Below are positions 1,356 through 1,532 of a stretch of 5,407 nucleotides of DNA, piece after piece. The translations under genes were made by a program, and so were the position numbers. The notes beneath the pieces were generated by a model that did no database searches, was not told the DNA's origin, and saw nothing but the letters and a program-made list of their open reading frames with translations. The DNA is from a virus (lineage: Duplodnaviria; Heunggongvirae; Uroviricota; Caudoviricetes). The DNA lies in the IMG/VR virus record IMGVR_UViG_2703718851_000002, positions 1 through 5,407 of that record. One strand, written 5' to 3'. How positions within the stretch are numbered: position 1 is the stretch's first letter; the number at the start of each line of letters is the position of its first letter.

Positions 1356-1532
1356 ATGCAACCACAATGTAATGATTGGTTTTCTGCAAAGAAATTAGAA
1401 GGGCTGATAGGTCTTCCAAAATCCTCTAGCGCGATCTCTCGTAAAGCAAGGTTAGAACAGTGGGTGTTTCGACAGATACACGGGGTAAATCCGTTTAACT
1501 ACAGCTCCATCCTTAAACATCCACTTTCCTGA
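1356..1532 (+). pseudogene. Transposase A 5' fragment (about 43 authentic codons, then out-of-frame read-through of antisense U' sequence)
   Basis: [41 protein letters not shown] matches the winged-helix N-terminus that MuA shares with the repressor (compare [35 protein letters not shown] in the c ORF here). The remaining residues are encoded by the opposite strand of U'. ner stop TGA 1351..1353 and the A ATG at 1356 are 2 nt apart, preceded by GAGG at 1345..1348. Track start at 1350 is TTG. Confidence 0.8.

Follow-up and report, generated by a model that had tools for sequence, protein, structure and literature searches.

The window analysed here, a stretch of 5,407 nucleotides from the viral record IMGVR_UViG_2703718851_000002, contains a point at which the beginning of a Mu-like transposase gene (A) meets a tail-fibre-assembly gene (U') of the opposite orientation. 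The question that this locus raises is whether the meeting point is a natural arrangement of phage genes or a deletion joint and, if it is a joint, what was removed and by which route. The initial annotation, which was made from the sequence alone, had favoured a single large deletion. In this study, the joint was compared base by base with intact relatives, and the element around it was placed in its host gene.

The element in its host gene

The chromosome of E. coli N61 (NZ_AP028880.1), a bovine mastitis isolate from Japan, is identical to the window (100%), and this record is a closed chromosome. Positions 82..4997 form a Mu-type element of 4,916 bp that is seated in the yjiT gene of N61. 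The element starts with TGTATTGATTCAC... at 82 and finishes with ...GCGCCGCTTCA at 4997, so that its termini are of the Mu type 5'-TG...CA-3' (TGTATTG from 82, CGCTTCA up to 4997). Comparison with the empty site places one copy of the 5-bp sequence GGGAA at 77..81 of yjiT and the other at 4998..5002. Since the empty yjiT site (1..81 joined to 5003..5407) exists uninterrupted, and with 100% identity, in 236 E. coli genomes, the element is a true product of Mu transposition with the canonical 5-bp duplication. The gene yjiT is split by it, and both flanking halves are marked as partial by PGAP.

Assignment to the Mu-type transposable phages is based on the 5-bp duplication and the termini, and on the gene order, in which a divergent c is followed by ner and A, and rightward by the invertible-segment genes, gin, com and mom. 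It is also based on near-identity to the phage PhiR68_1, on annotated homologues, and on Pfam matches to HTH_Tnp_Mu_1, HTH_35, Resolvase, Zn_ribbon_Com and Mom. The functional transposase A and the B protein that autonomy calls for are lacking, as only 44 of the 666 codons of A are left and B is missing. The 4.9-kb element is a non-autonomous remnant of a Mu-type prophage.

The target gene yjiT (STY4851/ECs_5259 family; window 1-81 and 5003-5407; locus L001, 1-5782) adjoins a gene for a 2,114-aa DEAD/DEAH-box helicase, and this neighbourhood could belong to a variable region of the defence type.

Retained arms and genes

The left arm (82..1488, plus strand), as delimited by alignment with PhiR68_1, consists of attL (TGTATTG...), c, the operator/enhancer region, ner and the first 44 codons of A. 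The repressor gene c (420-935, minus strand) has a full-length match to Pfam HTH_Tnp_Mu_1, and ner (1135-1353) matches HTH_35. To the right of the truncated U' lies S'v (1804..2829, minus strand), the variable C-terminal segment of the tail fibre, with a Gp34_trimer domain. S'v is an open frame between the gix site and the stop codon; its constant partner Sc is absent, and it is collinear with the corresponding segments of SfMu and of the prophages of strains E148 and 755. The sole remaining gix-like site, gixR (2812..2837, plus strand), differs from Mu gix by one mismatch; this single match within the window stands against 0 expected by chance. Its partner gixL was lost in the deletion. The right arm (2892..4997, plus strand), again by alignment with PhiR68_1, ends at attR (...CGCTTCA) and carries gin (2892-3473; Pfam Resolvase and HTH_7), com (3568-3756; Zn_ribbon_Com), mom (3677-4414; Mom family) and a D108-type gene 56 (4459-4905), the last assigned from annotated homologues. 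The genes c, ner, gin, com, mom and 56 are intact in the remnant.

Two of these features call for a remark. The S'v frame has a TAA in the outer half of gixR (2830-2832, minus strand), where TTTTAGATAA stands in place of the TTTTGGATAA of Mu and PhiR68_1; the same base is found in E148, SfMu and strain 755. Since the part that becomes joined to Sc upon inversion does not include this TAA, the TAA is probably harmless. Gene 56 is a 148-aa reading frame between mom and attR with a signal-peptide-like N-terminus (MKKSKLLISTIISLFVLTASSVNHAQE) and without a Pfam match; D108 and PhiR68_1 carry it under the name 'D108-specific protein 56'. It is missing from Mu, from SfMu and from the prophages of E148, 22KM0354, JNEC-KY180 and Z0117EC0036, in which mom directly abuts host DNA.

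The joint at base resolution

The initial annotation had placed the pair of endpoints within 1479..1490 and had proposed to locate it by finding where identity to A and U' collapses. Carried out with gene A of PhiR68_1 and a tail-fibre-assembly gene of strain 13KWH46, this comparison puts the joint at 1486..1488, inside that interval. Gene A of PhiR68_1 is identical to the window through 1488 and first differs at 1489. The 13KWH46 gene is identical to the window from 1775 down to 1486, with a single mismatch at 1776, and its first mismatch leftward across the joint is at 1485. The three bases TAA are common to both parents, a 3-bp microhomology, and nothing has been added at the joint: ...ACGGGGTAA|GAGG in the A parent and ...GCCGTATAA|ATCC in the U' parent have become ...ACGGGGTAAATCC in the window. 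At the joint itself, GTTTCGACAGATACACGGGGTAAATCCGTTTAACTACAGC in the window corresponds to GTTTCGACAGATACACGGGGTAAGAGGAGTAGCC... in the A parent (PhiR68_1) and to GTTGCTGTTCGTCTGCCGTATAAATCCGTTTAACTACAGC in the U' parent (13KWH46). Outside the shared TAA the two parents agree at chance level only, and the base-by-base comparison found no foreign sequence between the A and U' segments.

The joint is real and not a chance pattern, since both of its sides show 99.7-100% identity to intact genes of other genomes, where these genes run on beyond it. It is not flanked by repeats, and no IS element, Mu end or gix site was found at it. It is present in one of 5,426 complete E. coli genomes, in the single assembly of N61, and the exact 36-mer spanning it had 0 matches in metagenome contigs and GTDB representative genomes.

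The BLAST matches of U' all begin at 1486, and a natural mosaic boundary within U' was therefore considered as a candidate. It was rejected, because homologues run 211 nt further and are similar on both sides of this point. Full-length U' homologues in SfMu, in the E148 prophage and in P2-like prophages (strains 13KWH46, 755 and UID2404240038) all extend 211 nt past the equivalent of 1486, and a short hairpin-containing spacer and then the convergent U gene follow. Since they continue past the equivalent point, 1486 is not a natural module boundary.

The two truncated genes

Two reading frames cross the joint from opposite sides. The transposase A stub (1356..1532, plus strand) begins with ATG at 1356 and stops with TGA at 1530-1532, although the listed open reading frame begins at TTG 1350. 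It consists of 44 native codons (1356-1487), as defined by comparison with A of PhiR68_1 and by Pfam, followed by 14 codons of antisense U'. Its 44-aa prefix is identical to that of the 666-aa PhiR68_1 protein, the native part finishing with ...FRQIHGV, and its match to HTH_Tnp_Mu_1 covers only profile positions 1-34 of 134 and ends at the joint. The tail-fibre-assembly U' stub (1452..1802, minus strand), as defined by comparison with 13KWH46, by PGAP and by Pfam, has 106 native codons followed by 10 codons of antisense A. It is native from 1802 down to 1485, through ...AVVKRIY, and stops at 1452-1454. Its 106-aa prefix is identical to that of the 175-aa protein of 13KWH46, residue 106 (Y) being kept by synonymous coincidence, and its match to Caudo_TAP (profile positions 2-54 of 131) likewise ends at the joint. 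PGAP records 1485..1802 as a tail-fibre-assembly pseudogene with the remark 'missing C-terminus'.

The two frames are convergent and overlap over 1452..1532 (81 nt), in agreement with the initial annotation, which had also correctly read U' as native down to about 1485 (to ...AVVKRIY) before it runs into antisense A. For A, the proposed run into antisense sequence up to a chance stop is borne out; the proposed end of native sequence at about 1478 is not, as A remains native to 1488, three residues further. The joint does not lie at the 3' end of U', as had been supposed, but inside the gene at codon 106 of 175, so that the last 69 codons are lost. A different gene arrangement, in which U' would be full length and A would continue in frame beyond 1490, had been named as the alternative to a deletion; U' here holds 106 of 175 codons and identity to A stops at 1488.

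It appears that both stubs are non-functional by-products of the joint and are best regarded as non-genes. The 58-aa and 116-aa reading frames over the joint are deletion artefacts, and the deletion explains why a 'tail fiber assembly protein, missing C-terminus' is annotated by PGAP in N61 beside a tiny helix-turn-helix region.

An intact relative and the extent of the deletion

PhiR68_1 (PV340575.1) is an active Mu/D108-like transposable Escherichia phage with a complete genome of 37.1 kb (record of 37,128 bp; genome of 37,116 bp). A search of the literature for PhiR68 turned up only a different phage, PhiR68.2. The left arm of the remnant (82..1488) corresponds to positions 8..1414 of the PhiR68_1 record with 99.8% identity (3 of 1,407 bp differ), and the right arm (about 2800..4997) to positions 34925..37123 with 99.7% identity (about 6 differences). 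The phage and the remnant share the repressor/ner/A immunity type, gin, com, mom, the D108-type gene 56, the gene order and the strands.

The record annotation of PhiR68_1 places c on the minus strand (346-861), followed by ner (1061-1279) and by A (1282-3282, plus strand; 666 aa). Between A and S (31389-32897) lie B, early and middle genes, and the genes for lysis, head and tail. U (32901-33428) follows S, then come U' (33457-33990) and S'v (33993-34988), both on the minus strand, and beyond S'v lie gin, com, mom, the D108-specific gene and the right end. The native order A(+)...U'(-) S'v(-) gix gin(+) com mom is that of PhiR68_1, of SfMu and of related prophages, and the same order is found in the window. 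Removal of positions 1415..33676 from the PhiR68_1 record, which amounts to 32,262 bp or 87% of the 37,116-bp genome, recreates the structure of the window. The deleted part includes A from codon 45, B, the semi-essential region, the regulators Mor and C, the genes for lysis, head and tail, and also Sc, gixL, Sv, U and the last 69 codons of U'.

Since order and orientation match those of an intact Mu genome, a single deletion of about 32.26 kb suffices to account for the remnant. The initial annotation had estimated that one event removed over 30 kb, from A to the tail genes together with one half of the G segment, and the PhiR68_1 comparison agrees with this figure. A single event is the most parsimonious reading, although a last deletion would have erased any earlier joints nested within it.

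The G-segment allele of the parent

The U'/S'v block of the window (1486..about 2835) is an allele unlike PhiR68_1's own. The exact allele was not found in PhiR68_1 or in the five E. coli prophages of the same immunity type that were examined (those of E148, SA53-3, 22KM0354, JNEC-KY180 and Z0117EC0036); E148, 22KM0354, JNEC-KY180 and Z0117EC0036 have another U'/S'v allele, and PhiR68_1 has yet another. In the SA53-3 prophage, an IS3-family element replaces the S'v and gin region (locus L008, 2215-3428), an insertion by which a phage of the same type has decayed independently.

The nearest copies of the block are in the invertible segments of P2-like prophages, with 98.3% identity (window 1486-2835; locus L005, 6001-7350), and in SfMu, with 95.2%. 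The Shigella phage SfMu (KP010268.1) carries the same type of U'/S'v cassette, placed and oriented alike with respect to gin, and its U' is full length at 175 aa; its genome is intact, its immunity region is different, and only the first 230 bp of its left end match the window. Judged by these identities, host-range tail-fibre cassettes are plainly exchanged between unrelated phage families. The simplest reading is that the parent of the remnant was a mosaic of PhiR68_1 type with another, so far unsequenced, G-segment allele.

The G segment occurs in both orientations among the related prophages (loci L007, 2712-3239; L011, 4188-4715; L009, 2459-2986; L010, 4238-4765). The tail-fibre-assembly protein WP_001164120.1 is encoded proximal to gin in E148 and Z0117EC0036 and distal to gin in 22KM0354 and JNEC-KY180.

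Mechanism and timing of the deletion

The reading preferred here, to which a probability of about 0.8 is given, is that a PhiR68_1-type prophage in yjiT lost some 32 kb in situ through one illegitimate deletion at TAA. In the proposed course of events, a PhiR68_1-type prophage would have entered yjiT of an ancestor of N61 by Mu transposition, generating the 5-bp duplication, and one internal deletion of about 32 kb would later have removed most of it. This would have fused codon 45 of A with codon 106 of U', a gene of opposite orientation in the half of the G segment nearer to gin, the broken ends meeting at the common TAA with zero filler bases. The pathway may have been RecA-independent illegitimate recombination, in which the ends of a double-strand break are resected and joined at microhomology.

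The joint combines unrelated parental sequences, a short shared sequence and the absence of filler, as expected of a microhomology-mediated illegitimate deletion. In E. coli, illegitimate recombination proceeds by resection and microhomology-dependent, RecA-independent end-joining (PMC11372144). The joints of aberrant lambda excision resemble the present one, since unrelated sequences are joined there at a short shared stretch without inserted bases; however, around 9 bp of microhomology is quoted for the lambda Spi- class, whereas the joint of the remnant shares just 3 bp (PMC11372144). At a random joint, at least 3 bp of microhomology has a probability of 0.05 (about 5% of such joints), so that direction of the joining by microhomology is only weakly indicated. 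A RecA-independent end-joining pathway appears most likely, as far as the bases at the joint can tell.

Two other kinds of deletion were tried and rejected. Site-specific deletion by Gin at gix sites does not fit, as the only gix-like site (2812-2837) lies about 1.3 kb from the joint. Adjacent deletion mediated by a Mu end, by the transposase or by an IS element does not fit either, as the element has kept both of its Mu ends and its duplication unbroken and contains no IS. A search of the literature for described internal deletions of Mu-like prophages found nothing specific.

That there was one event, and that it took place in the chromosome after integration, also seems probable. The order of these steps could have been reversed: the deletion might have arisen first in a replicating phage, and the resulting 4.9-kb mini-Mu, its two ends and its enhancer still intact, might then have been moved into yjiT by the transposase of a co-infecting or co-resident helper phage acting in trans. 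The cis-acting regions all belong to arms with 99.7-99.8% identity to an active phage, and a perfect 5-bp duplication fits the insertion of an already deleted element equally well. This course nevertheless seems improbable, since it requires an extra helper that left no trace: N61 contains no helper phage, the immunity region and the Mu-type left end each being present in a single copy, and the joint is found at one site in one genome only. Decay in situ is therefore favoured over mini-Mu transposition, because the joint is unique and N61 is without a helper; the intact duplication fits both. No intact parent prophage was found at the same yjiT site, the left junction being present only in N61. 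As the joint occurs in one of 5,426 genomes and nowhere else that was searched, there is no sign that the remnant has spread as a mobile mini-element.

Still less credence is given to a course of several successive deletions, or to acquisition of the U'/S'v block by exchange with a co-resident P2-like prophage. The half G segment (1486..about 2835) is nearest to P2-like prophages and not to PhiR68_1, N61 has a second locus that matches the U'/S'v region, and earlier nested joints would have been erased by the final deletion. However, S'v-U' beside gix-gin in the same orientation is native to SfMu, PhiR68_1 and the E148 prophage, and tail-fibre cassettes are mosaic among Mu-type phages. Exchange would further require a second gix/gin crossover together with a chromosomal rearrangement, yet the element has its own ends and its duplication intact. 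An artefact of assembly, in the form of a chimeric join or a collapsed region, is very improbable: the joint is known from one assembly only, but A and U' have just 3 bp in common and no repeat by which an assembler could be misled, the chromosome of N61 is closed, and the element is coherent, with ends, duplication and orientation all correct.

Because both arms are near-identical to an active phage and the retained genes are intact, the evidence indicates that the deletion is recent.

Consequences for the remnant

With the genes listed above removed, the remnant is presumably unable to transpose, to replicate, to lyse its host or to build virions. The S'v/U' half would neither invert nor be expressed any longer because Sc and gixL were lost. 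In Mu, mom is activated by C. The C gene of PhiR68_1 lies inside the deleted interval according to the record annotation, and mom of the remnant would thus be left without its activator. The gin gene is intact beside a single gix-like site, which makes Gin an orphan invertase, unable to act on its own element; in principle it could act on the invertible segments of other prophages.

A laboratory mini-Mu is an internally deleted derivative of Mu that keeps both ends. The remnant is like such a construct in that both ends, the operator/enhancer and the repressor are kept, the structural genes are gone, and A and B would be needed in trans. It is unlike it in that its A-U' joint is a natural, illegitimate one, that it carries no marker, and that its mobilisation is only putative. 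Since its ends, operator/enhancer and repressor are essentially identical to those of the active phage, mobilisation in trans is conceivable. It is a rather doubtful proposition that the remnant serves as a natural mini-Mu, which a helper of PhiR68_1 type could mobilise and package with adjacent host DNA, which makes its host immune to phages of that type, and whose Gin flips the segments of other prophages.

The remnant is a case of ordinary prophage decay, a new instance of the well-known disarmament by internal deletion, and it involves no new mechanism or system. Its main use is in annotation; it also offers a base-precise case in which a Mu-like prophage was apparently disarmed in one step while its repressor, invertase and modification genes were kept.

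The immunity region of the remnant (c, ner and the N-terminus of A; 420-1488) is present in 15 of the 5,426 complete E. coli genomes. Its c gene has about 75% DNA identity to that of D108, and the match to Mu ends at about position 540 of the window, covering only the 3' end of c. By these comparisons, the region represents an immunity type distinct from that of Mu and from that of D108.
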